Shown piece by piece: positions 1 through 27,656 of a DNA stretch of 64,000 nucleotides. Numbering within the stretch: position 1 is the stretch's first letter; each line of letters opens with the position of its first letter. The stretch is taken from the NCBI GenBank assembly GCA_965221955.1, contig CBDCTA010000028.1:118700-182699 (forward strand), read 5' to 3'. Both the position numbers and the translations under genes were made by a program. The notes beneath the pieces were generated by a model. It was not told the origin of the DNA. It saw only the letters and a list, made by a program, of their open reading frames with translations, and searched no databases. The stretch comes from Gammaproteobacteria bacterium (lineage in GTDB: Bacteria > Pseudomonadota > Gammaproteobacteria > UBA4575).

Positions 1-1027
1 CTGCAACAATTCCTGCTAAAGGCAATAGTTCTGGACCGAATAACTCTTTCGTCCAACCTCCTACAAAACCTACAAAGGTCACAACCATGATTAACGGCCC
101 AGGCGTTGTTTCGCCCAAGGCTAACCCATCAATCATTTGTGTTGCAGTAAGCCAACCGAATTGATCTACTCCACCTTGATACACATATGGCAATACCGCA
201 TACGCACCACCAAAAGTTACCAATGCGGCTTTGGTAAAAAATACTCCCATTTGAGTCAGTGGATTATCCCAACCAAACTTAAAATAAAGTGCAGCTAAAA
301 CTGCAACTCCAATCCCTACTCCTATAACAATAAATGTAAGCGACCTCAACCAACTAAACTTTGCATAATCTGGTATAGGTGTATTGTCATCAATGATCGC
401 TGGCCCATATGAGTCCTGTGCTTCAGTTTTATGTAGCTCCGCATTGAAAGAATCAGGAATAGTTTTGGAACCAATAAAACCTAGAATGCCTGCACCAATT
501 ACAATTAACGGAAAAGGTACATGAAAATAAAAAATAGCAATGAATGCAATTAAAGCTATCGCACGTAACACATTATTTTTTAAGGCTCGAGAACCAATTC
601 GGTAGGCAGCGAATAGCACAATCGCTGTTACAGCAGGTTTTACACCATACAATACTCCTGACACAATTTGAGTCTGCCCATATTCTAAATATATCCAAGT
701 AAGTGCTATAAGAATAAATAACGAGGGCAATACGAATAAACCACCTGCAATCAATCCACCTTTAACACCATGCATCAACCAACCTATATAGGTTGCAAGT
801 TGTTGAGCCTCGGGACCCGGCAGCACCATAGTGTAATTCAATGCATGCAAAAAACGATGCTCAGATATCCAACGACGTCGCTCCACTAACTCTTGGTGCA
901 TCATACTAATTTGACCTGCAGGTCCACCAAAGCTTATGAAACCAAGCTTTAGCCAGTATAAAAATGCTTCACTAATTTTAATCTTGGCTGGAATATTTAC
1001 CATTTCAGCTTTTGAATAAGTAGCCAT
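1..1027 (-). CDS. chrA: Chromate ion transporter (CHR family, long chain), 3' end outside window
   Basis: Not in the ORF track because no stop falls in the window. Manual translation from ATG 1027 gives MATYSKAE...WLKLGFISFGGPAGQISMMHQELVERRRWISE...LPGPEAQQLATYIGW, and a second half with TFGGAYAVLPY and LGETTPGPLIM, both CHR signatures. Confidence 0.9.
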   Translation of the reverse strand, partial: MATYSKAEMVNIPAKIKISEAFLYWLKLGFISFGGPAGQISMMHQELVERRRWISEHRFLHALNYTMVLPGPEAQQLATYIGWLMHGVKGGLIAGGLFVLPSLFILIALTWIYLEYGQTQIVSGVLYGVKPAVTAIVLFAAYRIGSRALKNNVLRAIALIAFIAIFYFHVPFPLIVIGAGILGFIGSKTIPDSFNAELHKTEAQDSYGPAIIDDNTPIPDYAKFSWLRSLTFIVIGVGIGVAVLAALYFKFGWDNPLTQMGVFFTKAALVTFGGAYAVLPYVYQGGVDQFGWLTATQMIDGLALGETTPGPLIMVVTFVGFVGGWTKELFGPELLPLAGIVA

Positions 1028-1250
1028 AATGAACGATATATACAGGAAAACTACAGGCAATGTCCGTTTATCTACTTATGCACTCTTCCTATCATGATAT
1101 TTATATACATATAAATTAATTTTTAATACTTTAAATGTCACTTGGGAAAGTGTTTGTAGATATTTAGGAATTGCAATCAAAAGCTCGAAACATGAGTACC
1201 TACTGGTTTCTAAATATTATTAATAATCAAAGATTATTGAAGAAACACTT

Positions 1251-1826
1251 ATGGAAGATCTCATCGAAGAAATTCACTATGACCACATTAAATTTAGCAA
1301 GGTATTAGACATTCTTGCTGAGCAGCTCGAATGCATGCGTGATAACAAATCTGCTGACTATCCTCTAATGCTGGATGCAATAAATTATATCGAAAATTAT
1401 ACTGAATTTGCGTTAGCCCCTAAAGAAGATGCAATTTTTAAAAGATCTTCAGAAGATGATAGTTTTGTAGACCTGAGAGGTACAATTAAGCTACTGCGTT
1501 CAGAAAACCGTGAACTGAAAACACTCTCTCGCAAGTTGCACGGCTATATCAATGCAGCATTAGAAAGCTCTATATTTGAAAAAGACAAGTTTGAGCGCAA
1601 ACTTGAAGCTTGCATTAAACGACAACGTGATCACATGCATATGGAGCAAATTATTATCTTTCCTCTTTTAAGGAAAAGATTAAGCGCTAAACAAATCGAA
1701 AAGTTAAGTTCCGATTACAAAGCCAAATCAGATACTAAAATTTCTGAAGATTTTTGCGAAAAATATAACGAACTCTATAAAAGAATTACTCATACAAGCC
1801 ATTCAGACACTAATAGTATTCATTAG
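1251..1826 (+). CDS. Hemerythrin-like (HHE cation-binding) domain protein
   Basis: N-terminal IHYDH, central PKEDAIF and C-terminal HMHMEQxxIFP pattern; all-helical composition. Confidence 0.65.
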   Translation: MEDLIEEIHYDHIKFSKVLDILAEQLECMRDNKSADYPLMLDAINYIENYTEFALAPKEDAIFKRSSEDDSFVDLRGTIKLLRSENRELKTLSRKLHGYINAALESSIFEKDKFERKLEACIKRQRDHMHMEQIIIFPLLRKRLSAKQIEKLSSDYKAKSDTKISEDFCEKYNELYKRITHTSHSDTNSIH

Positions 1827-1849
1827 TCTTTCCGCAATATAAAAGCTGC

Positions 1850-3226
1850 CTAGCCATTAGCAATGGAGAGCATTTCTTCACGGCGCGTAAATTTCTCTCG
1901 AGGTTTATTTTTGGGTTCTCCTGCTGCGACTTCTGCTGCATCAATTTTCATCCATTGGCCATAATTGATGTATTGCACACCATTGCCATCCAAAATTTTA
2001 TACAAAGCTTCTCGACCAGGTTTATTTGCATCTAATTTCGACACATCTTCTAGCAACATATCTACTGACTCCACTGCGCATGCGCGGTTGGTACCTATAA
2101 TTCCAGAAGGACCACGCTTAATCCAACCTGCTGTATATAAACCTGGCACCACATCCCCTCCATGTTCAGTCGTAATACGTCCATTTTCATTAGGGATGGT
2201 GCCCCAACGATCATAGAAAGGTACACCTGGAATAGGCACACCATTGTAGCCAATACTGCGGAATAAAATTCCGCAGTCAATTTCCATGGTTTCACCAATT
2301 CCTTTACAAGATTGTTTAAATGGCTCTCCATCAAGAGTATTAATTTCAAATACAACTTTCTCTAAGCGACCATCACCTTCCAATCGAATAGGGCTTTTTA
2401 GAAACGTAGAAATACAGGTACGCGGCTTTCCTGTGTCTTCAGATTCTGCAAACTTTTGAAAGATTTCGACATTCTTTTTATTCCCACGCCCTTCTTTCAT
2501 TTCCAGTTCTTGCAAACTCGTCTCGTTCAGCTCTAATTCCTTAGGATCAATATAGGCACGACAGTTTTCAATTTCTAAGAATTCTTTTAATTCTTTAGAA
2601 GCAAATTTGGCTTGCGCTGGACCTCGTCGCCCAACCACATAAATCGTTTTAATTTTACTCTCAGCTAATGCATCCAGTGCATGTTGCGAGATATCAGTAT
2701 GTTTCAATTCGTCTACAGACTTCGCCAGAATTCGTGACACATCTGCTGCAACATTCCCTTGACCAATCACAATTGCAGTTTCGTGTGAAAGATCAAATGT
2801 ACGGTCCCGGTAATCTGGATGTCCGTTATACCAACCTACAAACTCTGTTGCCGTGTAACTACCTAATAAATCTTCGCCAGGTACGCCTAACTTACGATCG
2901 GTTTCAGCACCACAGGTATAAATTACGGCATGGTGTGTTTCTTGTAATTCTTCTGCCTTAATATCCTTACCTACCGTTACATTGCCGACAAAATTAAACT
3001 CAGGATTTTGTGCGATTTTCTTATATACTTCGATCGCCTGCTTGAGTTTTGGATGATCAGGAGCCACACCACTGCGCACCAGACCAAATGGTGCAGGCAA
3101 CCTTTCAATCAAATCGATTTCAACATTGAGGTCAGACTTAATTAATGCTTCGGTTGCATAGAAACCACTTGGACCACTTCCAACAATGGCTACACGTAAT
3201 GGGTTACTTTCGCTTCCAAGACTCAT
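1850..3226 (-). CDS. Ferredoxin-NADP+ reductase, adrenodoxin-reductase/FprA type
   Basis: VAIVGSGPSG (FAD), GLVRSGVAPDH, IGQGNVAADV (NADP), GRRGP and GWIKRGPSGIIGTN motifs. Confidence 0.9.
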   Translation of the reverse strand: MSLGSESNPLRVAIVGSGPSGFYATEALIKSDLNVEIDLIERLPAPFGLVRSGVAPDHPKLKQAIEVYKKIAQNPEFNFVGNVTVGKDIKAEELQETHHAVIYTCGAETDRKLGVPGEDLLGSYTATEFVGWYNGHPDYRDRTFDLSHETAIVIGQGNVAADVSRILAKSVDELKHTDISQHALDALAESKIKTIYVVGRRGPAQAKFASKELKEFLEIENCRAYIDPKELELNETSLQELEMKEGRGNKKNVEIFQKFAESEDTGKPRTCISTFLKSPIRLEGDGRLEKVVFEINTLDGEPFKQSCKGIGETMEIDCGILFRSIGYNGVPIPGVPFYDRWGTIPNENGRITTEHGGDVVPGLYTAGWIKRGPSGIIGTNRACAVESVDMLLEDVSKLDANKPGREALYKILDGNGVQYINYGQWMKIDAAEVAAGEPKNKPREKFTRREEMLSIANG

Positions 3227-3271
3227 TCAAAACTCCTCATCATTAATCTATTTCTTATATTTATTTACTAC

Positions 3272-3300
3272 AAACAAAACGCACAGGAAATTGCTGTGCG
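3272..3300 (-). terminator. Possible intrinsic terminator between the ferredoxin and reductase genes
   Basis: CGCACAG-N7-CTGTGCG hairpin followed on the minus strand by TTTTGTTT. Confidence 0.45.
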
Positions 3301-3332
3301 TAATTAAAGTCTATATATTTTCTAGCAAAAGT

Positions 3333-3442
3333 TCTGATTTTTTCTGAGACGAGACAAAAAATGTTGCAAAAAACGGAGCTTACTAATCAGTAAATGAGTA
3401 TTTTTAAAACATTTTTTAACGAAGTATTCAGAACAAATCAGA
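3333..3442. repeat. Palindromic intergenic element (RPE/MITE-like), copy 1
   Basis: Terminal IR TCTGATTTTTTCTGA / TCAGAACAAATCAGA, inner IR AAAAAATGTT / AACATTTTTT, core GAGCTTAC-N7-TAAATGAGTA...AACGAAGTA shared with 9749-9870. Confidence 0.7.
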
Positions 3443-3454
3443 GATTCTTGAGCT

Positions 3455-3760
3455 TTAGAATCCTAATTCTGATTTGCGATCTTCAGCACCAGGCAATGGA
3501 TCCATGGGCTCTTCAATTAAAGGCAGGTCACCGCATTTTTCAGCGTTGATTTCAACCCAGCCTTCTTGGCCTTCAGGAATGTCATCTTCTTCATAAATAG
3601 CCTCTACTGGACATTCTGGAATACATGCACTGCAATCAATACAAACCTCAGGGTCGATATAAAGCATTTCATCATCGTAGTGAAAACACGCAACTGGACA
3701 AACCGAAACACAATCTGTGAATCGACAGCCCTTACAATTTTCAGTTACAACTGTAGTCAT
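3455..3760 (-). CDS. fdxA: 7Fe ([3Fe-4S][4Fe-4S]) ferredoxin, Azotobacter FdI type
   Basis: CKGCRFTDCVSVCPVAC and CIDCSACIPECP motifs. ATG 3760 has a GGAG RBS and is preferred over the track start at 3799. Confidence 0.9.
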   Translation of the reverse strand: MTTVVTENCKGCRFTDCVSVCPVACFHYDDEMLYIDPEVCIDCSACIPECPVEAIYEEDDIPEGQEGWVEINAEKCGDLPLIEEPMDPLPGAEDRKSELGF

Positions 3761-3847
3761 TAGTTTGTCTCCTATATTATTAAGATAATTTAACCACAAA
3801 TATAGAAAACGCGATGAGTGTTCCGAAGCAAGTGATGTTTTCGAGTA

Positions 3848-4666
3848 TTATTTTGAAAACAATAAAACCTCGCCACGATTGAGTTCAATCCCGTCTCCGC
3901 TATAACGTTTGTAGATACCATTTAGGTGTTTATCTTGAATTTTCCTCTTGAAGCCATGGTCTTGCAACTTCCTAAGATAAAATCTTAAAAATAGTGGGCG
4001 ATATGTGCACGCATACTCGAAGCTAGGTAACATCTGCGCATCTTCTAATGATGCAATAGTGCCACGTTTCATACCTGCACCCGTTCGAATACCTAATTCA
4101 CCCAAAACAATAATCGAACCTGCCAACATATTTACACCTGTGAAATCACCTGCGTTTCCACCAATCGCAATAAAACCACGGCGCATGGCACTACCAATCT
4201 CGTTTTTTGCATCGCCATGAATAAATATTTCTCCACCTGTAATACCTACGGTATGACCTCTGTATGCAGCTCCAACCATGTGGCCAGCATTCTTTTTAAC
4301 AACAATACGACCACCCGACATTTCAGGGCCCACCCAATCTCCAGCATTACCTTCTACGACAATTTCTCCACCTGACATTCCTAATCCAAGGTGCATGCCT
4401 ACATCACCTTCAATGATGATTTTGCCCTCTGACATACCGGCACCAATCATTTTTACATTGGATAAATCGCCCTCGAGTAAAATTTCAGAATTGCCTTTAC
4501 CTGTTACTGTAAAGAAATCGCCTAAATTTGCTTTTACATTGCCATGCATTACAGGTAAATGCTCAATACCTGATTGTGATAGACCAGATAGTGTTGCCGT
4601 GTTAAGCACTTCAGCTTCCAACGGTACATCTGGTTGAGTGTGCAATTTTAAATGCGCTGTAGACAT
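3848..4666 (-). CDS. fwdC: Formylmethanofuran dehydrogenase subunit C (GXGXG beta-helix)
   Basis: Repeated GxxMSGGxIxxxGNAG units; last gene of the fwdDBA-ftr-C block. Confidence 0.9.
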   Translation of the reverse strand: MSTAHLKLHTQPDVPLEAEVLNTATLSGLSQSGIEHLPVMHGNVKANLGDFFTVTGKGNSEILLEGDLSNVKMIGAGMSEGKIIIEGDVGMHLGLGMSGGEIVVEGNAGDWVGPEMSGGRIVVKKNAGHMVGAAYRGHTVGITGGEIFIHGDAKNEIGSAMRRGFIAIGGNAGDFTGVNMLAGSIIVLGELGIRTGAGMKRGTIASLEDAQMLPSFEYACTYRPLFLRFYLRKLQDHGFKRKIQDKHLNGIYKRYSGDGIELNRGEVLLFSK

Positions 4667-4719
4667 AATATGTTACTTTATATCTGACTTATTTCTTGTT
4701 GTATTTAATGTAAAAAAAT

Positions 4720-5610
4720 TTATCCAACTAATTCATTTAAGTGGAATTTATACTTACCTAGCTCTCCACCGTAATTACCTGCCGAAATCATTGTGGCACC
4801 TTTTTCTGCTGCCGCCTTTATACCTCGTCGCATGGCTTCTTTAACGGCATCTTCAGTGAGACCATCGATCACGATCTCATAAATGGCTTCGACATTTTCA
4901 GGCACAACTGTATTATTACTAATTGATCGAAGCGTTGGACAATATGCGTCATTTGTTGATGCAATCATGCCTTTATATTTTGCACCGATTTTACTTCCCG
5001 ATCGCACGACCCCCTGCGGGAAAGGCAAAAATACGCCACCCACTTCACGCATTGCATGAGTTGCTGCAATCGACGCGCGTAATGCGATGCCTCTTGTTGA
5101 ACCAAATATAATTAAATTACCCCCGCCTACTGCGGGTTTAATTCCGAATTGATCATCAATGAGAAACTCACCTGACATTACAGGAATCCGCCACAAGCGA
5201 ATGTCATCAATAAGCTTACTAATTTGATAACCATCACCAAAGAAACGTAATTTACCACCAACAGAAACAGAATCTTCAGATTCCAAACCGTTGTAACAGG
5301 CTGATGTCGGACAAGTCATCACACACTGACCGATACGATCAATTAATTGACCTGCAATGGTTTTAGAACTCATAGTGAATAACAACACGCTTATTCCAGG
5401 ACGACCATCTGGTGTATCTGATTCAGGTATTTCACACTCCACTGCAGCTTCTAATTTGCAACGAATTACAGATGTAGCAAACCCTGTCATAGAAGCCGCC
5501 GCCGCACGCGCCCATTGTTTCGTATCAGCAGTGATAATCACTCGCGAGCCACACATTTCAAATGCTTCTGCAAATGTATCTACAATTTCAGTTTTACCAA
5601 TTTTCATCAT
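4720..5610 (-). CDS. ftr: Formylmethanofuran:H4MPT formyltransferase, copy 1
   Basis: IVDTFAEAF, ETPDGRPG-like TPDGRPG, RIGQCVMTCPT, RSGSK and AGNYGG motifs. Confidence 0.93.
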   Translation of the reverse strand: MMKIGKTEIVDTFAEAFEMCGSRVIITADTKQWARAAAASMTGFATSVIRCKLEAAVECEIPESDTPDGRPGISVLLFTMSSKTIAGQLIDRIGQCVMTCPTSACYNGLESEDSVSVGGKLRFFGDGYQISKLIDDIRLWRIPVMSGEFLIDDQFGIKPAVGGGNLIIFGSTRGIALRASIAATHAMREVGGVFLPFPQGVVRSGSKIGAKYKGMIASTNDAYCPTLRSISNNTVVPENVEAIYEIVIDGLTEDAVKEAMRRGIKAAAEKGATMISAGNYGGELGKYKFHLNELVG

Positions 5611-5623
5611 GTTGATAACTAAA

Positions 5624-7270: not shown

Positions 7271-7351
7271 ATATTTTAGTTGTTATTTTTTACAACAACT
7301 CCATCGCTGCAGTTGCTCTAAATTTATTAATTATGTTATCCGTTTTAAAAT

Positions 7352-8725
7352 TTACGCAGCAACGCGTGCTTTACTTCCCTTAAGCTTTTCTTTAACGCGT
7401 TTGCGAATCGCCTCTAATACTTCTTGGTCGGATGGATAGGTCGATTCAAATGCAGGGCGCAAAGAAATCGGCACATCATCCATTCTATAAACTGTACCAC
7501 CTGTGTTAATGCCATAAGTTGAAACTGCAAAACGCACTTTAGCAATACTACTTGTCACTGTGTCTTTTGTATCTAATGAAATAATTGGAATTTTCTTCAT
7601 ATGTTCAATTGCAGCTTTAGGAAAATTTGACGCAGGATCAGAAGCAATAATCATCGCCGCATCCGCCTCTCCACGTGAAAGCAAATCAGTCGTTGTAAAT
7701 TCACCTGGATTAAAACGAGGGTAGCCGCGATTGAAATTCACACCAAAAGGATATCCTGTTTGCCAAGACACAACATTATCAGCTCCTGTCACATTACCAT
7801 GGCCACGTACAGGTTTAGCTACGAAGTGAGTAAATTCATTTAAATCTGCCGCTAATGACAATAACGCTCCCGAATTAAAATGCCGCCCTCTCGTCATCGT
7901 TAAACCCATACCAAAAAACAACACGCCAAATTGGCAGTTCTTCATGCGATCAACTAAGTCATCTAATACATCTCGTGATACGCCTGTTTGTTCTTCAATG
8001 TCGTTACTAATCTTTTTACCTTTAACCAACGCACGCAACGCCCATAGTACTTCAAAGTCTTTACCAGGTTTAAGTTTTACAAAGATATCCGCTACAGGCG
8101 CACTTGGTGTTTTACGCACATCAAATAACACTACAGTACGATCTTTTTTCCCATTTGGAATGTACATACCTTTTGGTGTTACCGCATAACGTGTGAAATG
8201 TCGTGGATGTGATTCAGCTGGATTACCACCCCAGTAGATAATTAAATCTGCACGGTTCTTAACTTCACCTAATGTTGCAGTACTCTCCCCTACTCCTTGG
8301 AAGGCCATACCCGATGGACCGTGACAAACTGACGTTGTGGTATCAATGTTCCCGTTTATCGTATCCATGATATCTACGGTGACACGTTGTGCTTCACAAG
8401 TTGAATCACTCATTCCATACGTGATTGGAAACTTTGCATCAACTAAGATCTTTGCTGCTGCTTCAACACCTTCTTCAAAACTGGCTTTTTTACCATCAAT
8501 TAACACTTCTGGGCGCGTATCTAAAGTGTGTTCGTAAAACCAGGCACGGCCTAAAACACACGCTTTTTTAGCTTTGGTAATTTTATGTTGATCTAGATCG
8601 ACTGTGAGTTCCATATCGTCACAAACACAACCACAAAAGGTGCACGTTGCGTCTTTAACGATTTTAATATTTTTATTTTCTTCTTTGGTTTTTACGGGTG
8701 CTTTTGCAGGCGCTGTTTCACTCAT
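7352..8725 (-). CDS. fwdB: Formylmethanofuran dehydrogenase subunit B (Mo/W-bisPGD catalytic subunit, motifs intact)
   Basis: CTFCGCVCDD...KACVLG [4Fe-4S] ligands, SVCHGPS (metal-ligating Cys plus His), TLGEVKNRAD, NPAESHPRH and RGHGNV. Confidence 0.92.
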   Translation of the reverse strand: MSETAPAKAPVKTKEENKNIKIVKDATCTFCGCVCDDMELTVDLDQHKITKAKKACVLGRAWFYEHTLDTRPEVLIDGKKASFEEGVEAAAKILVDAKFPITYGMSDSTCEAQRVTVDIMDTINGNIDTTTSVCHGPSGMAFQGVGESTATLGEVKNRADLIIYWGGNPAESHPRHFTRYAVTPKGMYIPNGKKDRTVVLFDVRKTPSAPVADIFVKLKPGKDFEVLWALRALVKGKKISNDIEEQTGVSRDVLDDLVDRMKNCQFGVLFFGMGLTMTRGRHFNSGALLSLAADLNEFTHFVAKPVRGHGNVTGADNVVSWQTGYPFGVNFNRGYPRFNPGEFTTTDLLSRGEADAAMIIASDPASNFPKAAIEHMKKIPIISLDTKDTVTSSIAKVRFAVSTYGINTGGTVYRMDDVPISLRPAFESTYPSDQEVLEAIRKRVKEKLKGSKARVAA

Positions 8726-8756
8726 AACAAATATTCCAAATAATTAAGTAATAAAT

Positions 8757-9733: not shown

Positions 9734-9748
9734 TCTCAATAAAATCTA

Positions 9749-18434: not shown

Positions 18435-19700
18435 ATGCAATTTAAAACTGTAACCTGTCCACATTGTGGGCTGCTGTGTGACGATCTGGAAATCAACGTT
18501 TCAAACTTATCCGTTGAATACACAGGACCCAATGGCCCCAAATGCGAACGAGCTATTCAAGCATTTGATGATGCATCGTTGAATGATAATGAAGTACCAA
18601 AGCCACTCATCTTGGGAAAACCCGTTTCTGAACAACAGGCATTAGAAAAAGCTGCTGAACTATTACGTAACGCCAAACTACCATTAATAAGCGGATTGAT
18701 TGCAGATGTTCAAGCCAACAGAGAAGCGATCGCACTAACAGAAAAAATTGCTGGTGTCATAGACCACGAGAATGGGAGCGCGCTACGTAAAGGCGTAGCA
18801 GTAATGCAGCGCATGGGTGAAGTGCGTACTACACTAGCAGAAGTACGCAACCGAGCAGATTGTGTTGTGATTTTTGGTAACAAGATCACTACAAAATTTC
18901 CTCGTTTATTACCTCGAATATTGAGCCCAGAAAAAGCCTTAAGTAACGAAAATTATAAAAATAAAAAAATATTTATTCTTGATATTTCAAACGATGGAAT
19001 AACCCAATGTGAAGTTGAAAATAATATCACTCACGTGAAGTTCAATTATCCATTAATTGAATCTCTTGTTTATCGCTTTCAAGAAGTTATTACTCGACCA
19101 AAAGAATATTTCACAGATCGCGATCTACAGACTGAAGAGCTTTTTAAAATACTGGATACTATTTTATCCAGTCAGTACACAACTATTGTCTGGAGCACTA
19201 GTGATTTTAATCCAGAATCTGCTGAACACACCATACAAGCATTAACTGAAACGATTAAAACATTAATGAAAAATGTTCGTTGTGTAGGGTTACCTCTTGG
19301 CGGCTCCAAAGGCGAAATGACGGCAAATCAAGTTTCGACATGGCAAACGGGAGTCGCTTTACCTGTTTCTTTTGCGCAAGGCACTCCTATCCATGACCCT
19401 GTGTTATACGATGGAATGAAAATGTTGAAAAACTCAGAAACCGATTGCTTATTATGGGTGGCTACTTATAACTCGGAAAACATCCCACCTGAAAACAACA
19501 TCCCAACTATTTTATTGGGTCACCCAAAAATAAAATATGAGCATGCTGAAGTTTATCTTCCTGTTGGTGTACCTGGGATTGATCACCGCGGTTTGGCTTG
19601 TCGTACAGATAACGTTGCAACACTACCCTTACACGCACTTCGTGAAAGCAAGCTTTCTCCTGCAAACACTCTTTTAAATAAACTTATTCAGCTAATCTAA
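18435..19700 (+). CDS. fhcB: Formyltransferase/hydrolase complex subunit B (degenerate FwdB homolog)
   Basis: CPHCGLLCDD and TTLAEVRNRAD are kept, but CH and RGHxNV are replaced by DHENGS and GGSKGE; WQTG and GVPGIDH present. Confidence 0.9.
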   Translation: MQFKTVTCPHCGLLCDDLEINVSNLSVEYTGPNGPKCERAIQAFDDASLNDNEVPKPLILGKPVSEQQALEKAAELLRNAKLPLISGLIADVQANREAIALTEKIAGVIDHENGSALRKGVAVMQRMGEVRTTLAEVRNRADCVVIFGNKITTKFPRLLPRILSPEKALSNENYKNKKIFILDISNDGITQCEVENNITHVKFNYPLIESLVYRFQEVITRPKEYFTDRDLQTEELFKILDTILSSQYTTIVWSTSDFNPESAEHTIQALTETIKTLMKNVRCVGLPLGGSKGEMTANQVSTWQTGVALPVSFAQGTPIHDPVLYDGMKMLKNSETDCLLWVATYNSENIPPENNIPTILLGHPKIKYEHAEVYLPVGVPGIDHRGLACRTDNVATLPLHALRESKLSPANTLLNKLIQLI

Positions 19701-19705
19701 CTTTT

Positions 19706-21364
19706 ATGGCGATTAAACTTTCAAGTGGCCAAGTGTATGATCCCGCACATCAAGTAGATGGTGAGAATAGAGATTTATATATTGTTGACGGCAAACTGCA
19801 AAGTAATTTATCCGACAGTGAAAAAATAGAACAAACGTATCAATTAGATGATTGCATAGTAATGGCAGGTGCAATCGATTTGCATACACATATAGGTGGT
19901 GGAAAAGTAAATATCGCCCGCACTATGATGTTGGATGATGCACATGATCATCCGCATGCAAGTTCTGAAATTTGCCGTGCTGGCAATGGCCATATCGTAC
20001 CTTCTACATTTAGTACAGGTTATCGTTACGCTGAAATGGGTTACACCGCGTGCTTTGAACCTGCTGTTCTCCCCGTCAATGCTCGACAAGCCCATATGGA
20101 AATGGCTGATACACCTATGGTGGACAAAGGTGGTTACGCAATGTTGGGGAATGACGACTTTTTATTAAACATGATCCACAGTGGCGCAACTCAACAAGCT
20201 ATTAACGACTATGTTGCATGGATATTAGATGCCAGCCAATGTATTGGCATTAAAGTAGTTAACGCTGGTGGCATTCATGCCTTTAAATATAATCAACGAA
20301 GACTTGATATAGATGAGACCGGCCCTGCAGGCAGCAAACCTCGAGAAATCATTAACAAACTTAGTAGAGCCGTGCATGATCTTGGACTTGCGCACCCTTT
20401 ACATGTTCACGCAAGTAACTTAGGTGTACCTGGTAACTTTGAGTCAACACTGGCTACCATGTCTGCAGCGGATGGTTTACCGATCCATCTCACACATATT
20501 CAGTTTCATAGTTATGGCACTGAAGGTGACTATAAGTTTTCTTCAGCGGCCTGCGAAATTGCAGAAGCCATTAACTACAATAAAAATGTTACCGCAGATG
20601 TTGGGCAAATCATGTTTGGCCAAACCATCACAACCTCTGGCGACACCATGATGCAGTATTTTGGCCATGATCATGCTTCACCAAAAAAATGGACAGTGAT
20701 GGACATTGAATGCGAAGCAGGCTGCGGTGTGATTCCATTTAAATATCGTGATAAAAGTTTTGTAAACGCATTGCAATGGGCCATTGGTTTAGAAATATTT
20801 TTACAAGTAAACGATCCGTGGCGTGTATTTCTCACCACCGATCATCCTAATGGCGCGCCTTTTACAAGCTATCCTCACTTAATAAAACTATTAATGGATC
20901 ACTCATTTAGAAATGATGTATTCAGCATCGTTCATGCTGATGCACAAAAAGCATCAAACTTAGCCGCGATGGATCGCGAATATTCTTTATATGAAATCGC
21001 CATCATGACGCGCGCAGCACCGGCTAAAATATTAGGTTTAAAAGGTCATGGTCATTTAGGTGATGGTGCGCATGCAAATATCACGGTATATCGTAAACAA
21101 GACGATGTTGAACAAATGTTTGCGAAACCTGCTTATGTATTCAAAAACGGCACTTTAATTGTTAAGGATGGCAAAATAATTGAAACGGTTCAAGGCGTCA
21201 CTCATGTAACTAAGCCCGAATACGACCCTGCTATCGAAAAACCATTGAAGAAGTACTTTGATGATTATCAAACTATTTCTCTAAATAACTTTAAAATTTC
21301 AAATGATGAAATGGTAGAATGCATCGGTAGCGACATAGAAACGCATTCTTGTAAGAATAATTAA
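19706..21364 (+). CDS. fhcA: Formyltransferase/hydrolase complex subunit A
   Basis: DLHTHIGGGKVN, KVVNAGG, HVHASNLG, THIQFHSYG and TTDHPNGAP motifs. Confidence 0.93.
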   Translation: MAIKLSSGQVYDPAHQVDGENRDLYIVDGKLQSNLSDSEKIEQTYQLDDCIVMAGAIDLHTHIGGGKVNIARTMMLDDAHDHPHASSEICRAGNGHIVPSTFSTGYRYAEMGYTACFEPAVLPVNARQAHMEMADTPMVDKGGYAMLGNDDFLLNMIHSGATQQAINDYVAWILDASQCIGIKVVNAGGIHAFKYNQRRLDIDETGPAGSKPREIINKLSRAVHDLGLAHPLHVHASNLGVPGNFESTLATMSAADGLPIHLTHIQFHSYGTEGDYKFSSAACEIAEAINYNKNVTADVGQIMFGQTITTSGDTMMQYFGHDHASPKKWTVMDIECEAGCGVIPFKYRDKSFVNALQWAIGLEIFLQVNDPWRVFLTTDHPNGAPFTSYPHLIKLLMDHSFRNDVFSIVHADAQKASNLAAMDREYSLYEIAIMTRAAPAKILGLKGHGHLGDGAHANITVYRKQDDVEQMFAKPAYVFKNGTLIVKDGKIIETVQGVTHVTKPEYDPAIEKPLKKYFDDYQTISLNNFKISNDEMVECIGSDIETHSCKNN

Positions 21365-21368
21365 AACC

Positions 21369-22286
21369 ATGATTATCAATGGCGTTGAAATAGAAGATAC
21401 GTTTGCTGAAGCATTCCCTATGCGTGCAACACGCGTAATAATTACTGCCATCAACTACAAATGGGCGCGCCATGCAGCAGATACAATGACAGGTTTTGCA
21501 ACCTCTGTAATTGGTTGTGGCGTTGAAGCGGGAATTGAAAAAGTGATCGGTAATCACGAAACGCCTGACGGTAGGCCAGGTGTTTCTGTTCTACTATTTT
21601 CTACTGATAAAAAAACGTTAGAAAAACAATTGCAGACACGCATTGGGCAATGCGTGCTGACCTGTCCCACTACTGCAGTTTTTTCCGGTATGGATGGAGA
21701 CGACCAAATTTCACTCGGAAAAAACATTCGTTATTTTGGCGACGGATTTCAAACTTCTAAAAAAATTGGCAACAAAAGATTTTGGCGCGTTCCAGTCATG
21801 GATGGCGAATTTTTATGTGCCGAAAGTACTGGCTACCAAAAAGCTATTGGTGGTGGGAATATTTTAGTTTTTGCGCGCGGTATTTCACATGCATTGCTTG
21901 CTTGTGAAGCTGCTATTGATGCAATCAGCATGTTACCTAACATCATCATGCCGTTTCCTGGCGGTGGTGTGCGTTCTGGTTCAAAAGTTGGATCAAAATA
22001 TAAATTTTTAAGTGCCTCCACTAATCATCCTTATTGCCCTACCTTAAAAGGTCGTCCTGATAATGTGCTTGGAAAAAATATCGAAGCAGCAATGGAAATT
22101 GTTATTGACGGTTTAACTAAAGAAGATGTGTCTTTAGCAATGTATCGTGGTATTGAAGCGATATGCGATCTTGGAAAATCTCAAGGCATCGAAAAAATTA
22201 CTGGTGGTAATTATGGTGGTAAGTTAGGGCCACATCATTTTCATTTAAGAGAAATCATGCATGAGTCTTACAACCGTTACATATAA
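21369..22286 (+). CDS. fhcD: Formylmethanofuran:H4MPT formyltransferase (Fhc subunit D), copy 2
   Basis: IEDTFAEAF, ETPDGRPG, RIGQCVLTCPT and GGNYGGKLG motifs. Confidence 0.93.
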   Translation: MIINGVEIEDTFAEAFPMRATRVIITAINYKWARHAADTMTGFATSVIGCGVEAGIEKVIGNHETPDGRPGVSVLLFSTDKKTLEKQLQTRIGQCVLTCPTTAVFSGMDGDDQISLGKNIRYFGDGFQTSKKIGNKRFWRVPVMDGEFLCAESTGYQKAIGGGNILVFARGISHALLACEAAIDAISMLPNIIMPFPGGGVRSGSKVGSKYKFLSASTNHPYCPTLKGRPDNVLGKNIEAAMEIVIDGLTKEDVSLAMYRGIEAICDLGKSQGIEKITGGNYGGKLGPHHFHLREIMHESYNRYI

Positions 22287-23097
22287 AAGCGACTCAAATA
22301 AAGAACCGCAATTTCGCTTAGATATGCACTGGCTTAGTAATGCGATTGATTGTGCCTGCAGCAGTGATGATGCCAAAAAACTTACTCTACAGATTGGTAA
22401 CGAAACATCGCCAGTTGGTGATCATTTTGAGATAGAGGGAAACTTTGATCAACAAACGATTCGTTTAGAAAATGCAAATCAAAAGATGGATTTTGTTGGC
22501 TACGCTTTACCTGAAAACATAGAACTTAATGTTGCAGGCGATGTAGGTCATTATGCTGGCAGTTCCTTAAAGGGTGGTAAATTAAAAATTCAAGGAAATG
22601 TCGATGACTTTGCTGGCTGCGAGATGTCCAAGGGAGTGCTTGAAATCAACGGCAATGCTGGCGACTACTTAGGTGGTGCACAGGCAGGAAATAAAAAAGG
22701 CATGTCCGGAGGTTCTATCCTTGTACATGGTAACAGTAATCATTTCACAGGAGATCTAATGCGCCGTGGCACTATCATGGTAGTGGGCAATATTGGCGAT
22801 TACTGTGCTAGCCGAATGATTGCTGGCACAATTGCGAATTTGGGCACCATAGGCAAACAAGTTGGGGTCGGTATGCGCAGAGGAACGATTCTATTACCCC
22901 ACAAACCCAAAGATGTGATCACTGGATTTCATGATTGTGGGCGTCACAACTTAGGCTATTTAACGCTACTTCTGCATGAGATCAGAAGCTTTGAAAGCAC
23001 CTTCCAGTCTCTTCATCCTATGAGACGGCGTGTTCAGCGTTATTTAGGCGATACTGCGGTAGGTGGACAAGGGGAAATGCTAATTTGGATTGGCTGA
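22261..23097 (+). CDS. fhcC: Formyltransferase/hydrolase complex subunit C
   Basis: GXGXG beta-helix repeats, MRRGTI and RYLGDxAVGGQGE motifs. Confidence 0.9.
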   Translation: MSLTTVTYKSDSNKEPQFRLDMHWLSNAIDCACSSDDAKKLTLQIGNETSPVGDHFEIEGNFDQQTIRLENANQKMDFVGYALPENIELNVAGDVGHYAGSSLKGGKLKIQGNVDDFAGCEMSKGVLEINGNAGDYLGGAQAGNKKGMSGGSILVHGNSNHFTGDLMRRGTIMVVGNIGDYCASRMIAGTIANLGTIGKQVGVGMRRGTILLPHKPKDVITGFHDCGRHNLGYLTLLLHEIRSFESTFQSLHPMRRRVQRYLGDTAVGGQGEMLIWIG

Positions 23098-23205: not shown

Positions 23206-24882
23206 ATGGATAAAACAGTTACACGTAAACGTAATAAAATGCGAGGCGAAAAGCGCGGCCGACGTGTAGACCTTAATGTCTTAGAACAAATCCGTGAGCT
23301 ACTATCTCCTCTGCCTCAGCGACGTGATTTACTCATCGAATACTTGCATTTAATCCAAGATAAATACGGCCACATATCAGCGGCTCACATCACAGCTCTT
23401 GCAAGTGAAATGAAACTCGCCACCACTGAAATCTATGAGGTTGCAACGTTTTATCATCATTTTGATGTAATCAAAGAAGGCCAAACCCCTCCTCCGCCAT
23501 TGACGGTACGTGTTTGTGATTCGATCAGTTGCCAAATGAATGATGCCGAAACTTTAGTACGTGAATTAGAAAATTTTTATAAAAAAGATGTGCGCATCCA
23601 ACGTGTACCATGCGTAGGAAGATGTGCAGAGGCCCCTATTGCAGTAGTTGGAAAAAATCCTATTCAACATGCAACGCTTGAAAAGGTTTGTGCAACGGTT
23701 GATAAAGGTGAAACCGAAGCAGCTGTAGCTGAACATATTACTTATAACAACTATGTAAACAGTGGCGGCTATGAATTATTAAAACGTTCGTTTGACAGCA
23801 CCGATTCGGCGGAAAAAATTATTGAAATCATGAAAGACTCGGGTCTGCGCGGTTTGGGTGGAGCGGGATTTCCTGCTGGACTGAAATGGGAAATTGTTCG
23901 CAATTATGAAGGTCCACGTGTATTAGCAGTCAATATTGACGAAGGTGAGCCTGGAACATTTAAAGATCGTTATTTTTTAGAAAAAGATCCGCACCGATTT
24001 ATTGAAGGTGCATTAATCGCGGCACAGGTAGTAGGTATCGATGAAATTTATATTTATTTGCGAGATGAGTATCAAGGTTGCTACACCACTTTGCTACATG
24101 AGCTCGATGAACTAAAGAAAGACCCTCCCTTGCAATTACCGCATATTGAATTACGCCGTGGTGCAGGTGCTTATATTTGTGGCGAAGAGTCCGCCATGAT
24201 CGAATCGATTGAAGGCAAACGCGGAATGCCACGTTTACGACCTCCTTTTGTTGCTGAAGTAGGTGTGTTTGGAAGACCTACACTTGAACACAATTTAGAA
24301 ACTCTTTTCTGGGTACGCGACATTATTGAAAAAGGTGCTGATTGGTTTACTTCACATGGTCGCAATGAAAGAAAAGGCTTACGTTCATTTTCAGTAAGCG
24401 GGCGTGTTAAAAAGCCTGGTGTACATGTTACTGATGCAGGGATCACGATTAATGAACTGATCGAGGAACATTGCGGCGGTATGTTAGATGGACATGAATT
24501 CTATGGTTACTTTCCTGGCGGTGCTTCAGGTGGAATTCTGCCTGCTTCTATGGGTGATATCCCTTTAGACTTTGACACATTAAATGAACATGGCTGTTTC
24601 ATCGGTTCGGCAGCGATCATCATTTTTTCAGACAAAGACAAAGCGCGTGACCTAGCCCAAAACGCTATGGAATTCTTTTCACATGAGTCATGTGGAAAGT
24701 GCACACCTTGCAGAGTTGGCACTTCCAAAGCGGCCATGCTGATGAAAAAACCAAAGTGGGATCAATCACTGATGCAAGAGCTTTCGCAAACCATGAATGA
24801 CGCTTCAATTTGTGGATTAGGACAAGCTGCATCAAATCCGATGACATCGGTAATAAATTATTTCCCTAAAGAACTCGATTAA
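23206..24882 (+). CDS. NAD-dependent formate dehydrogenase beta subunit (NuoE+NuoF-like; FMN, FeS)
   Basis: RVCDSISC and CVGRC [2Fe-2S], SGLRGLGGAGFP, DEGEPGTFKD, GAGAYICGEE and ESCGKCTPCR; architecture of methylotroph Fdh1B. Confidence 0.9.
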   Translation: MDKTVTRKRNKMRGEKRGRRVDLNVLEQIRELLSPLPQRRDLLIEYLHLIQDKYGHISAAHITALASEMKLATTEIYEVATFYHHFDVIKEGQTPPPPLTVRVCDSISCQMNDAETLVRELENFYKKDVRIQRVPCVGRCAEAPIAVVGKNPIQHATLEKVCATVDKGETEAAVAEHITYNNYVNSGGYELLKRSFDSTDSAEKIIEIMKDSGLRGLGGAGFPAGLKWEIVRNYEGPRVLAVNIDEGEPGTFKDRYFLEKDPHRFIEGALIAAQVVGIDEIYIYLRDEYQGCYTTLLHELDELKKDPPLQLPHIELRRGAGAYICGEESAMIESIEGKRGMPRLRPPFVAEVGVFGRPTLEHNLETLFWVRDIIEKGADWFTSHGRNERKGLRSFSVSGRVKKPGVHVTDAGITINELIEEHCGGMLDGHEFYGYFPGGASGGILPASMGDIPLDFDTLNEHGCFIGSAAIIIFSDKDKARDLAQNAMEFFSHESCGKCTPCRVGTSKAAMLMKKPKWDQSLMQELSQTMNDASICGLGQAASNPMTSVINYFPKELD

Positions 24883-24902
24883 GGAATGTTGGAGAAAAAG
24901 TA

Positions 24903-27656
24903 ATGGCTGCAAATCCAGAACAATTAGAGGATTTCAAAACAGTAGAGTTTTCGCTTAACGGTGAAAAGATAAAAGCCTATGAAAGCGAAAGTATTTTGGA
25001 AGCCGCTAAACGTCACGGTGTAGACATTCCTCACTTATGCTATAAGCCTGGTATGCGTGCAGATGGAAATTGTCGTGCTTGCATGGTTGAAATCGAAGGT
25101 GAACGTGTTTTACAACCTTCTTGTGTGCGTACTCCAACGGAGGGAATGGTAGTTAACACTGAAAATGAACGTGTTAACCATTCTCAAAAAATGGTGTTGG
25201 AGTTGCTCCAATCCGATATGGCCGAAAGTCAATACACACTCAATAGTGAACTTGATCATTGGTCTAAAGAGCTAGAAGTAGGTTTACCTCGTTTTGAGTC
25301 ACGCCATAATCCCGAACAAGATTTATCTCACCCTGCGATTGCAGTGAATTTAGATGCATGTATTCAATGCACACGATGTGTACGTGCCTGCAGAGAAGAA
25401 CAAAACAATGATGTCATTGGTTATGCAAATCGTGGCGCTCACTCTGAAATTGTATTTGATATCCAAGATCCAATGGGCGACAGTACTTGTGTCGCATGTG
25501 GAGAATGCGTGCAAGCTTGTCCTACGGGAGCATTAATGCCTTCGCAACAGTTAGGCATGCTAGAGCCTGACCGTAAAGTTGAATCAACATGCCCTTATTG
25601 TGGTGTAGGTTGTTTACTTACTTACAATATTAAAGATGAAAAAATTATTTATGTAGAAGGACGCGACGGACCAGCAAACAAAAGTAGATTGTGCGTTAAA
25701 GGCCGCTACGGATTTGACTATGTACATCATGTCGGACGCATCACAAAGCCGCTCATTCGAAAACAAGGTGTTTCAAAAGATATAGGCAATCTTGAATCAC
25801 TAAGCTACAAGGACATCGATCAATATTTCCGCGAAGCTACCTGGGACGAAGCGCTCGACCTTGCTGCAAAAGGCTTAGTCGATATTCGAGATCAGCATGG
25901 CCCTAACGCCTTAGCGGGATTTGGTTCTGCAAAAGGCTCCAACGAAGAAGCTTATTTGTTCCAAAAATTAGTTCGCACTGGTTTTAAAACCAACAATGTT
26001 GATCACTGCACACGCTTATGTCATGCCTCTTCTGTTGTAGCATTACTTGAAGGAATTGGCTCTGGCGCAGTTTCAAATCCGGTTGAAGATGTTTCTAGAG
26101 CAGATGTAATCGTAATTATTGGTTCGAATACAACTGAAAATCACCCTGTAGCGGCAACTTTTGTTAAAAACGCAAAACGTAATGGTGCAAAATTAATTGT
26201 TATGGACCCAAGGCGGTCCGACATCGCTCGCCATGCCGATTATTTTTTACAGTTCAAACCTGACACAGATGTGGCCATGTTAAATGGCATCATGAACTCT
26301 ATTATTAAGCAAAACTTGCTAGATAAAGAATTTATTAAAAACCGCACGGAGAATTTTGCAGAGTTTGCAAAACATATACTTAAGTACACTCCAGAAAAAG
26401 TTGAAAAAATCTGTGGTATCCCTGCAGCGACGCTACATGAAGTTGCAAAAATTTATGCAAGCTCTAACGCTTCTATCATTTTCTGGGGTATGGGTGTATC
26501 CCAACATATCCATGGTACTGACAACGCACGCTGCTTGATCGCACTTTCTATGATGACAGGTCAAATTGGTCGACCTGGTACAGGCTTACATCCACTACGC
26601 GGTCAGAACAATGTGCAAGGCGCTTCCGATGTAGGATTAATACCAATGGTTTTCCCAGATTATCAGCGTGTAGACAGCCCTGAAGCACACTCGCGTTTTG
26701 AAAAATTATGGGACACTGAATTAGATGACAACCCTGGTTTAACGGTTGTGGAAATTATGCACGCCATATCAGATGGAAACTTACATGGAATGTATATTAT
26801 GGGTGAAAATCCAGCAATGTCTGACCCGAACTTAAACCATGCTCGCAAAGCACTTGCAACGCTTAAACATTTAGTTGTGCAAGATATTTTTATGACTGAA
26901 ACTGCATGGTTTGCAGATGTCATCCTTCCTGCATCGGCTTTTCCAGAAAAAACAGGAACCTTCACTAATACAGACCGTCGTGTTCAATTAGGCAGACAAG
27001 CATTAATGCCTCCAGGTGAAGCAAAACAAGATTTATGGCTCATTAATGAAATTGCGAATCGTATGGGACTCGATTGGAAATACCACCACCCATCTGATGT
27101 GTTTAACGAAATGCGTCAAGGCATGGATAGCATTAAAGGTATGACATGGGAGCGCTTAGAAGAACAACATTCAATAACATATCCGTGTGAAGAAGAAAAT
27201 GACCCTGGACAAAGTGTAATTTTTACAGATGACTTTCCGACCGAAAATGGCAGAGGTAAGTTTGTACCTGCAGAATTCACCAATGCTGATGAATTACCGG
27301 ATCAAGAATATCCCTTTATATTGGTCACAGGTCGACAATTGGAACACTGGCATACCGGCTCAATGACACGTCGTGCAAGTATGCTCGATGCAATAGAACC
27401 CGTACCGGTTGCAAGCATTAATCCTAATGATCTTGCCAAACTAGGTCTCAATGCGGGTGACAGAATTAAGTTATCCTCTAGACGCGGAGAAATTGAATGC
27501 TTTGCACGTGAGGAACATGGGGTTAACCCAGGACAAGTGTTTATGCCTTTCTGCTATCGAGAAGCTGCAGCAAACTTACTGACAAATGAAGCACTGGACC
27601 CCTTTGGGAAAATACCAGAATTCAAGTTTTGTGCACTGCAAGTAGCTCCCGCATAA
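24903..27656 (+). CDS. Formate dehydrogenase alpha subunit (W/Mo-bisPGD, Cys ligand; Fdh1A-like)
   Basis: N-terminal FeS motifs (NCRAC, CIQCTRCVRAC, CVACGECVQACP), CPYCGVGC, DHCTRLCHASS, RGQNNVQG and KIPEFK. Confidence 0.93.
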   Translation: MAANPEQLEDFKTVEFSLNGEKIKAYESESILEAAKRHGVDIPHLCYKPGMRADGNCRACMVEIEGERVLQPSCVRTPTEGMVVNTENERVNHSQKMVLELLQSDMAESQYTLNSELDHWSKELEVGLPRFESRHNPEQDLSHPAIAVNLDACIQCTRCVRACREEQNNDVIGYANRGAHSEIVFDIQDPMGDSTCVACGECVQACPTGALMPSQQLGMLEPDRKVESTCPYCGVGCLLTYNIKDEKIIYVEGRDGPANKSRLCVKGRYGFDYVHHVGRITKPLIRKQGVSKDIGNLESLSYKDIDQYFREATWDEALDLAAKGLVDIRDQHGPNALAGFGSAKGSNEEAYLFQKLVRTGFKTNNVDHCTRLCHASSVVALLEGIGSGAVSNPVEDVSRADVIVIIGSNTTENHPVAATFVKNAKRNGAKLIVMDPRRSDIARHADYFLQFKPDTDVAMLNGIMNSIIKQNLLDKEFIKNRTENFAEFAKHILKYTPEKVEKICGIPAATLHEVAKIYASSNASIIFWGMGVSQHIHGTDNARCLIALSMMTGQIGRPGTGLHPLRGQNNVQGASDVGLIPMVFPDYQRVDSPEAHSRFEKLWDTELDDNPGLTVVEIMHAISDGNLHGMYIMGENPAMSDPNLNHARKALATLKHLVVQDIFMTETAWFADVILPASAFPEKTGTFTNTDRRVQLGRQALMPPGEAKQDLWLINEIANRMGLDWKYHHPSDVFNEMRQGMDSIKGMTWERLEEQHSITYPCEEENDPGQSVIFTDDFPTENGRGKFVPAEFTNADELPDQEYPFILVTGRQLEHWHTGSMTRRASMLDAIEPVPVASINPNDLAKLGLNAGDRIKLSSRRGEIECFAREEHGVNPGQVFMPFCYREAAANLLTNEALDPFGKIPEFKFCALQVAPA

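Follow-up and report, generated by a model that had tools for sequence, protein, structure and literature searches.

Gene content of the fwd-fdx-fpr cluster

The stretch analysed here, referred to as the window, comprises 64,000 nt of contig CBDCTA010000028.1 (assembly GCA_965221955.1, positions 118,700 to 182,699) from an uncultured marine member of the Gammaproteobacteria. On its minus strand, between positions 9101 and 1850, open reading frames (ORFs) and family scans identified seven genes arranged head to tail in the order fwdD-fwdB-fwdA-ftr-fwdC-fdx-fpr (Table 1). The first five encode the subunits of a formyl-methanofuran dehydrogenase (Fwd) together with a formyltransferase (Ftr), and the last two a ferredoxin (Fdx) and a ferredoxin reductase (Fpr). 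The reading considered here is that Fdx and Fpr provide the electron outlet of the dehydrogenase, by which the oxidation of formyl-methanofuran would yield NADPH.

No gene lies between fwdC and fdx in the window, and the ORF and family scans gave no FwdF or FwdG gene in the cluster. A FwdF-like polyferredoxin was also not found genome-wide (2.69 Mb), no ORF having more than two CxxCxxCxxxC motifs; because the genome is 96.6% complete, the polyferredoxin is described as 'not found' rather than as 'absent'. The fdx ORF formally runs from 3799 to 3455, and its start was assigned to position 3760 because residue 14 is where the alignment to the NCBIfam FdxA model begins and an AGGAG motif is found 9 nt upstream of 3760; this makes the spacer between fwdC and fdx exactly 87 nt. 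The first-pass annotation of this DNA had described a cluster without a polyferredoxin, an FdI-type ferredoxin starting 87 bp after fwdC and an adrenodoxin-reductase-like gene next on the same strand, and all of this was borne out.

Table 1. Genes and other features of the window that bear on the fwd-fdx-fpr cluster, with the matches that support them.
Feature	Description	Position	Strand	Supporting evidence
fwdD	Molybdopterin-dinucleotide-binding cap domain of formyl-methanofuran dehydrogenase, 114 aa	8757..9101	-	Pfam Molydop_binding 9.6e-13; PDB FwdD chains 2ki8 8.8e-20, 5t5i_D 2.8e-12
fwdB	Redox-type catalytic subunit, 457 aa	7352..8725	-	TIGR03129 506 bits; N-terminal 4Fe-4S cysteines; catalytic Cys134-His135
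fwdA	Amidohydrolase subunit, 548 aa	5624..7270	-	TIGR03121 702 bits (above cut-off)
ftr	Formylmethanofuran:tetrahydromethanopterin (H4MPT) formyltransferase inside the operon, 296 aa	4720..5610	-	Pfam FTR and FTR_C; NF002554 422 bits; PDB 6s6y_D and 1ftr ~300 bits each
fwdC	Beta-helix subunit, 272 aa	3848..4666	-	TIGR03122 252 bits (above cut-off); PDB FwdC/FhcC chains
fdx	7Fe ([3Fe-4S][4Fe-4S]) ferredoxin, FdI/FdxA type, 101 aa	3455..3760	-	A. vinelandii FdI match
fdx-fpr spacer	228 nt, structured as RNA	3227..3454	-	Minimum free energy -48.7 kcal/mol, z -2.93
Hairpin	Terminator-like (8-bp stem, 7-nt loop) with T-rich tail, 46 nt upstream of fpr start	3269..3301	-	
fpr	FprA/adrenodoxin-reductase-type NADPH:ferredoxin oxidoreductase, 458 aa	1850..3226	-	1lqt and 1cjc matches
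fhcB-fhcA-fhcD-fhcC	Paralogous formyltransferase/hydrolase of the formate-releasing type	18435..23097	+	Family scan
Formate dehydrogenase	NAD-linked, NuoF-like and alpha subunit	23206..27656	+	TIGR01959 376 bits; TIGR01591 802 bits

The catalytic core has the residues of the redox-active type

In bacterial methylotrophy the H4MPT pathway is usually taken to end with the formyltransferase/hydrolase complex (Fhc) and a separate formate dehydrogenase. Fhc, the usual bacterial relative of Fwd, has no redox activity, so that an outlet for electrons would be superfluous, and the type of enzyme encoded by the cluster was therefore considered subunit by subunit. The window FwdB matched FwdB of M. wolfeii (5t5i_B) with 378 bits, as opposed to 56 bits for FhcB of Methylorubrum extorquens (6s6y_B), and FwdA matched the FwdA chains in PDB with 472-485 bits compared to 346 bits for FhcA. 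Four cysteines of FwdB (C28, C31, C35 and C56; CxxCxxxC...C) align with the N-terminal [4Fe-4S] motif of archaeal FwdB, and its SVCHGPS and RGHGNVTG segments align with ASVCHGPS and RGHYNVTG of the archaeal active site. An alignment of 34 sequences, each from a different species-level genome, shows no variation at these cysteines or at C134, H135 and R307. A separate FwdD cap domain is present with matches to FwdD structures, as are the amidohydrolase and beta-helix subunits. A flagged TGA had raised selenocysteine as a candidate in FwdB of the related genome G034; it is the stop codon of the upstream fwdD, and the catalytic residue is Cys.

The nearest bacterial comparison is FhcABCD of M. 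extorquens (6S6Y; PMC6926001), which resembles the window cluster in its order B-A-(Ftr)-C, in having the formyltransferase in the operon and in its bacterial, H4MPT-linked C1 oxidation. According to the available part of that account, however, FhcB has lost its N-terminal iron-sulfur domain and pterin site as well as the catalytic Cys118, His119 and Arg288 (M. wolfeii numbering); the FwdD cap is also gone, and the product released by the complex is formate. The fwdB of the cluster does not have the character of such a B subunit: its catalytic residues, its N-terminal iron-sulfur motif and FwdD are all present. Judged by these residues, the enzyme is of the redox-active Fwd/Fmd type and not an Fhc scaffold, and since the catalytic and iron-sulfur residues are kept and FwdD is present, it would, unlike the Fhc complex, have electrons to dispose of.

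Comparison with the tungsten FwdABCDFG of M. wolfeii (5T5I) leads to a similar view of the core. FwdA, B, C and D of the window are full-length homologues that share the 4Fe-4S cysteines, the catalytic Cys-His pair and FwdD. The cluster differs in that FwdF and FwdG, the iron-sulfur subunits found in archaeal complexes, are missing, Ftr is in the operon, and a soluble 7Fe ferredoxin and a FAD reductase are encoded instead; furthermore, the enzyme belongs to a bacterium and is expected to run towards oxidation. FwdG and FwdF are a feature of the archaeal electron module and not of catalysis. The enzyme core is thus, in every core feature compared, predicted to be of the archaeal Fwd/Fmd kind, and it is the electron module that differs.

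The ferredoxin and the reductase

Fdx has the cysteine pattern C-x2-C-x4-C-x3-C-P ... C-x2-C-x2-C-x3-C-P in about 100 aa with a C-terminal extension, as predicted for a 7Fe-type ferredoxin, and it matched the 7Fe ferredoxin I of Azotobacter vinelandii with E values of 6e-28 to 1e-25. All nine of its cysteines are invariant in the 34 sequences, with a mean column identity of 85%. It shares with A. vinelandii ferredoxin I (1FDA, E ~1e-27) the cysteine pattern and the length class; the difference is that the window Fdx belongs to a distinct orthologue group which travels with fwd. The genome holds a second FdxA copy that is 54% identical to the fwd-linked one, and among 41 related genomes the two are separable, the fwd-linked group showing at least 69% identity compared to at most 56% for the housekeeping copy.

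Residues 9-456 of Fpr align with residues 3-454 of M. tuberculosis FprA (1lqt, E 1.5e-108), and the match to bovine adrenodoxin reductase (1cjc) has an E value of 5.8e-98, a full-length similarity that places Fpr in the two-domain adrenodoxin reductase fold. Invariant in the 34 sequences are the FAD motif G16-x-G18-x-x-G21, the NADP-type motif G155-x-G157-x-x-A160, G199-R-R-G-P203, H58 and E212/E215. The FAD and NADP motifs, the arginine pair, the His and the Glu all align with FprA. We take the arginine pair of GRRGP to bind the 2'-phosphate of NADP, and the His and Glu to form the active site, by analogy with the roles assigned to them in FprA. The likeness to FprA (1LQT) and to bovine adrenodoxin reductase (1CJC) therefore covers fold, length and these motifs. 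The difference lies in the role: the known one is NADPH to ferredoxin to P450, whereas the reverse is proposed for the window, where the pair would drain a low-potential dehydrogenase and no P450 is nearby. In the accessible text of PMC6208970, electron exchange is described between M. tuberculosis FprA and a number of 3Fe and 7Fe ferredoxins, with the 7Fe-type FdxA among them.

Conservation of the linkage as seen from FwdB

The sample of 41 related genomes includes the window's own. True FwdB was found in 26 of them, and both Fpr and the fdx orthologue (at least 69% identity) in the same 25 of these 26. In 19 of the 25, FwdB, Fpr and fdx lie within about 6 kb on one contig, while in the other six they are parted by contig ends. 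The remaining FwdB genome (G034) is 75% complete and its contig stops inside fwdC. G018 and G020 are two small genomes from the same family, and in them none of the three (FwdB, Fpr or the fdx orthologue) was found.

A scan of a genome collection confirmed 479 FwdB relatives, and the best 80 loci were examined with the seven window proteins by tblastn. All 80 species-level loci come from metagenome-assembled genomes (MAGs), which are labelled mostly as Gammaproteobacteria (with labels such as Thiotrichales, Chromatiales including USCg_Taylor, Candidatus Porisulfidus and Candidatus Oxydemutatoraceae), with a few Gemmatimonadota, one Betaproteobacteria and one Anaerolineae. Of these loci, 61 are long enough for the arrangement to be judged, and the order fwdD-B-A-ftr-C-fdx-fpr was found at 55. 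In two (L035 and L036) fdx-fpr lies immediately upstream of fwdD, in two (L034 and L081) fpr is upstream of fwdD with no nearby fdx, in two fdx is present and the contig then ends, and one (L032) has neither gene, fwdC being followed by mch-like and ATP-grasp genes. The contig is cut at or before the end of fwdC in the other 18. An 81-aa ORF upstream of fpr in L034 was considered as a hidden ferredoxin and rejected, as its translation is Arg/Pro-rich and has only three Cys. In a FwdB tree of 89 rows (the window and all loci with FwdB of at least 60% identity over at least 400 aa), the six loci that have fpr upstream group together in a clade supported at 99%. As these loci form a single clade, one rearrangement is indicated, with the linkage kept.

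At the 55 loci with all seven genes, Fdx is the most conserved product, with a mean identity to the window of 82%, compared to 80% for fwdB, 73% for fpr and 66% for fwdC. The gap between fwdC and fdx is 36-268 nt where fdx follows fwdC, which is too short for a further gene. The conservation of Fdx, this short gap and the fdx-fpr gaps of 7-60 nt seen in many lineages would fit a main catalytic partner encoded by co-transcribed genes.

These counts bear directly on whether fdx and fpr could be housekeeping genes that stand beside fwd by chance. FdxA-type ferredoxins are indeed common, with at least one in 40 of the 41 relatives. Set against this, the linkage of fwd, fdx and fpr spans at least two phylum labels and one rearrangement, the presence and absence of the genes track each other, and the fwd-linked fdx is an orthologue group of its own. 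A chance neighbourhood is already contradicted by the synteny counts and is hardly credible. The first-pass annotation had named a failure of fdx and fpr to be conserved beside fwdD-containing clusters as what would speak against its proposal, and had suggested a search for the seven-gene order across genomes; the order was recovered from the FwdB side and, as described below, from the Fpr side. The identities of the genes, their intact catalytic and cofactor motifs and the widespread inheritance of fdx and fpr together with fwd can be read directly from the sequences.

Conservation as seen from Fpr, and the pair outside fwd

Of 201 genomes sampled at class level, ten were found to have FwdB, 12 an Fpr relative and nine both (Fpr of at least 62% identity). 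Two of the nine, G063 and G165, are unpublished genomes, and without them there are eight genomes with FwdB and seven with both. One genome with Fpr only, G143 (Fpr 58%), has fdx and a C-terminal remnant of fwdA with no true FwdB. Its locus (L089, G143:C80, 1841-5445) consists of fdx (73% identity), a fragment matching FwdA residues 401-525 only, and then fpr, and looks like a decayed fwd cluster. In the other two Fpr-only genomes (47% and 41% identity) Fpr lies in unrelated contexts.

A metagenome scan confirmed 566 Fpr relatives, of which the best 80 loci (48-91% identity) were examined. Where Fpr has at least 58% identity (37 loci), fdx is adjacent together with true fwd genes in 21, two of these in the order fdx-fpr-fwdD; nine have an adjacent fdx on contigs too short to see further, three have less than 450 nt upstream and four have no fdx (the short L131, and L115, L119 and L124). 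All contigs in this range that are long enough to judge therefore carry fdx and fwd, except for three that carry fhc only. Of the 43 loci below 58% identity, 15 still have fdx immediately upstream of fpr, with no fwd; fdx is missing from 25, and three are too short. Five of the 15 fwd-free fdx-fpr loci have a flank of at least 1.5 kb on both sides.

The Fpr tree was built from 128 of 140 sequences, the other 12 having been dropped because fewer than 400 residues were covered or a stop lay inside. On this tree the label 'fdx- or fwd-linked' needs only two changes, and the linked sequences form one group with 97% support (FastTree). The fhc-only sequences of L115, L119 and L124 nest among the fwd-linked ones, a position that fits secondary loss in these contigs.

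Three of the fwd-free loci (L141 2126-5012, L147 3540-8767 and L152 5149-10365) carry moaA-fdx-fpr in one direction, and in L147 and L152 this set adjoins a divergent gene for a 735-aa molybdopterin oxidoreductase with an N-terminal Fe4S4 domain, for which no NCBIfam model scored above its cut-off. These arrangements suggest that the 7Fe ferredoxin and the FprA-type reductase are an older two-gene unit that has come to accompany two or more enzymes of one superfamily, which would support both their joint working and a docking on the N-terminal cluster. The pair may be a general adaptor for molybdopterin enzymes with a single N-terminal 4Fe-4S cluster.

The same loci raise the question of whether Fpr is dedicated to Fwd at all. 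Fdx could be the acceptor of Fwd and feed mainly other ferredoxin enzymes, with Fpr buffering the pool in both directions and no dedicated NADPH being made. The 15 loci with fdx-fpr and no fwd would agree with this, as would the three beside moaA, where a flow from NADPH through ferredoxin to the molybdopterin oxidoreductase is as likely as the reverse. FprA-type enzymes are, in the portion of PMC6208970 available, usually assayed as donors from NADPH to ferredoxin. A general buffer would not, however, be expected to stay with fwd where there is no adjacent fdx, as Fpr does in L034 and L081, or to be missing in the relatives searched exactly where fwd is missing, and the second FdxA copy of the genome is available for general use. 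We consider this explanation rather unlikely, and the functional linkage of Fwd, Fdx and Fpr, taken by itself, highly probable.

The spacer between fdx and fpr

In the window, the 228-nt spacer between fdx and fpr folds more stably than its shuffles (200 shuffles; Table 1). It contains a GC-rich hairpin with an 8-bp stem (3301-3279), followed by TTTGTTTG, which is the top terminator-like site on the minus strand within positions 1000-10000. Taken over both strands, this region has nine terminator-like sites where shuffles lead one to expect 6.3, and sites of this class are therefore not enriched overall. The hairpin was also considered as a repeated element and this was rejected, as the arm pattern occurs at only two places in the genome.

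L010, L011, L013 and L014, whose Fpr is 82-89% identical to that of the window, have a hairpin of this kind as well, with a T-run but with different stem bases; the scan found none in the 53 remaining loci. No hairpin separates fdx from fpr in the majority of the other lineages, where the two are 7-60 nt apart, and this spacing, as it occurs in many lineages, points to co-transcription. From its distribution the hairpin appears to be local to the genus group of the window and is not part of the conserved design. There it may act as a partial terminator or as a stabiliser of the mRNA end, setting a high ratio of ferredoxin to reductase. An earlier proposal that a hairpin at 3272-3300 may limit read-through into the reductase gene was thus right about the hairpin itself, and the read-through role is plausible for the window's genus only.

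Another reading is that Fpr and Fdx only trickle electrons from NADPH to Fwd, so that its Mo/W-pterin or iron-sulfur centres are reductively activated, repaired or protected from oxygen, the bulk acceptor being elsewhere. The hairpin would fit a low need for Fpr in this genus. Pterin enzymes of the formate dehydrogenase type are sensitive to oxygen, and the organism looks aerobic from the genes for methanethiol oxidase, a di-haem peroxidase-like protein and SCO1 in the window. Such a minor role fits poorly with the very high conservation of Fdx, which would be better explained by a main catalytic partner than by an occasional activator. No gene for an alternative acceptor is conserved in the cluster, and the gap between fwdC and fdx leaves no room for one. 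A purely activating role for the two proteins is accordingly judged unlikely.

A proposed route from formyl-methanofuran to NADPH

In the proposed scheme, Ftr would transfer the formyl group from H4MPT to methanofuran and FwdA would hydrolyse the formyl-methanofuran. The formate would be oxidised to CO2 at a Mo/W-pterin site of FwdB/FwdD (a predicted cofactor), and the two electrons would pass singly to the ferredoxin by way of the [4Fe-4S] cluster at the N-terminus of FwdB. In Fpr, the FAD would then gather two electrons and reduce NADP+. The outcome would be a direct, NADPH-yielding branch from the formyl level to CO2, beside the route through Fhc and formate dehydrogenase that is encoded 9 kb away.

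Standard potentials place the couple of CO2 and methanofuran/formyl-methanofuran at about -530 mV, the 3Fe cluster of FdI-type ferredoxins at about -425 mV and NADP+ at -320 mV. On these values, electrons that pass from formyl-methanofuran to NADP+ would run about 0.2 V downhill, and driving them the opposite way would take energy. This matters for the possibility that the module runs the other way, from NADPH through Fpr and Fdx to Fwd, and turns CO2 into formyl-methanofuran for assimilation. Archaeal Fwd does run in this direction in methanogens, as stated in the part of PMC11656701 that is accessible. Starting from NADPH, however, the electrons would have to climb about 0.2 V. The cluster has no gene for a bifurcating or energy-coupling partner, and the neighbourhood (methanethiol oxidase, Fhc and formate dehydrogenase) is one of C1 oxidation. 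Assimilation by this module is very improbable.

Several observations weigh against the oxidative, NADP-linked route and should be set beside the evidence for it. Not every fwd locus has both genes alongside: L034 and L081 have no nearby fdx, and L032 has neither. In L115, L119 and L124 an Fpr of 59% identity has just fhcB-like and fhcA genes beside it, and up to 9 kb of upstream sequence contains neither fdx nor fwdD. Since fdx and fpr are also paired where fwd is missing, the pair is not specific to Fwd. A look through sequencing runs for positions 1850-9101 turned up three runs from a single study, present as contigs and with no type recorded, and none identified as RNA. In the window itself, fdx and fpr are parted by the terminator-like hairpin. 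Fdx scored 110.2 bits against the NCBIfam model FdxA_Protbact (NF045490), below the cut-off of 135 bits, and so is related to this equivalog but outside it. As to the counts, genomes that are related cannot be treated as independent observations, and the genome and metagenome collections overlap, with four identical rows shared between them. Finally, it is from sequences that we infer which proteins bind each other, which way the electrons flow and that NADP+ is where they end up. With these points included, the complete chain from formyl-methanofuran through ferredoxin to NADPH, carried by fwd, fdx and fpr, remains the explanation we favour and regard as fairly probable.

Genomic surroundings

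The Fhc set and the NAD-type formate dehydrogenase lie in the window beside Fwd (Table 1), and the organism therefore encodes both routes. FhcB of the window is 25% identical to FwdB and has no equivalents of Cys134, His135 and Arg307. The Fhc-type B subunits of the window (18435-19700, plus strand), L124 (10669-11967) and L035 (217-1761) keep an N-terminal CxxCxxxC...C, with the catalytic Cys, His and Arg gone. They differ in this from FhcB of M. extorquens, whose N-terminal iron-sulfur domain is missing according to the available part of PMC6926001. An Fhc-type set directly follows the fwd cluster in some loci, after fpr in L108, L110 and G038 (contig C154) and after fwdC in L034, and these lineages have both formyl-methanofuran systems and the reductase in one block.

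Directly upstream of the fwd operon (10165-17736) are genes for methanethiol oxidase, SCO1/SenC, a thioredoxin-like protein and MauG/MbnH-like di-haem proteins; given this block, the formaldehyde that feeds the H4MPT route may come from methanethiol. An intact methanethiol oxidase copy (15126-13747) lies beside a second MtoX copy (15396-16778, minus strand) that is split, with 16778-15942 matching positions 1-207 of the model and 15800-15396 positions 288-407. The split copy could be a broken gene or an assembly error. A 90-aa ORF divergent from fwdD (9461-9733, plus strand) matches Pfam PF14026 (SCO4226-like, nickel-responsive; 2.5e-28), and a homologue is at the same position in 20 related loci.

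Further away, dnaX (DNA polymerase III gamma/tau; 52935-54558, minus strand) is present as overlapping ORFs in different frames, 54558-53650 for the N-terminal part and 53714-52935 for the C-terminal part, which could reflect a frameshift site or a sequencing error. A gene for the gamma subunit of thiocyanate hydrolase at the end of the window (63335-63874, minus strand; TIGR03887, 296 bits) hints at further C1-sulfur metabolism.

Relation to known systems and significance

The electron modules of Fwd covered in the available part of a 2024 account (PMC11656701) are polyferredoxin, Hdr-linked and F420-linked, and the word NADPH does not occur in that part. The closest parallel is Fwd of Candidatus Ethanoperedens, an F420-coupled ethane oxidiser (PMC11493965; PMC11656701), which from the accessible text is likewise an oxidative Fwd with a non-standard acceptor module. 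There it is an electronically connected F420 reductase in an archaeon, whereas the window has genes for a soluble ferredoxin and an NADP-type flavoprotein in a bacterium. For bacteria, a 2023 survey listed 149 FwdB homologues that were attributed to transfer from Archaea, with nothing on partners in the portion available (PMC10100899), and a 2016 overview, in its accessible part, gave fwdD as not present in Proteobacteria (PMC5020050). No link of bacterial Fwd to an FprA/adrenodoxin-reductase-type reductase or to a 7Fe ferredoxin was found in open-access texts and bioRxiv, supplements aside. Formylmethanofuran, fwd and fhc are not mentioned in the TMED127 paper (PMC12542740), and a match to 'fwdD' in PMC12423496 was rejected, as it is the name of a primer.

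Taken together, the system may represent a third, unrecognised electron module of Fwd, after the polyferredoxin/Hdr-linked and F420-linked ones, in which NADP-linked oxidation, an intermediate position between Fwd and Fhc and a general adaptor for pterin enzymes are combined. This joint reading is offered tentatively, as one that we find possible but are slightly inclined to doubt. The intermediate position is suggested by the fact that the gene order of Fhc, with Ftr inside, is combined with a dehydrogenase that is predicted to have stayed active, so that the operon may be a living intermediate on the way from archaeal Fwd to Fhc.

What appears from sequence to be a complete and catalytically intact Fwd is present in hundreds of bacterial contigs (479 FwdB and 566 Fpr relatives), most of them from uncultured organisms. 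According to their MAG labels, the carriers include marine and sponge-associated Gammaproteobacteria, the USC-gamma lineage of atmospheric methane oxidisers, Gemmatimonadota and a betaproteobacterium. If the proposed route is true, the oxidation of formyl groups to CO2 would be NADP-linked in a wide range of uncultured bacteria, by a formate-free route that yields NADPH and is missing from carbon-flux models of marine and soil C1 oxidisers. Should the model hold, the cluster would also encode a minimal Fwd free of polyferredoxin, which could be reconstituted and used for CO2/formyl chemistry, and would offer a candidate, one that can be tested, for the step by which Fwd and Fhc are linked in evolution.

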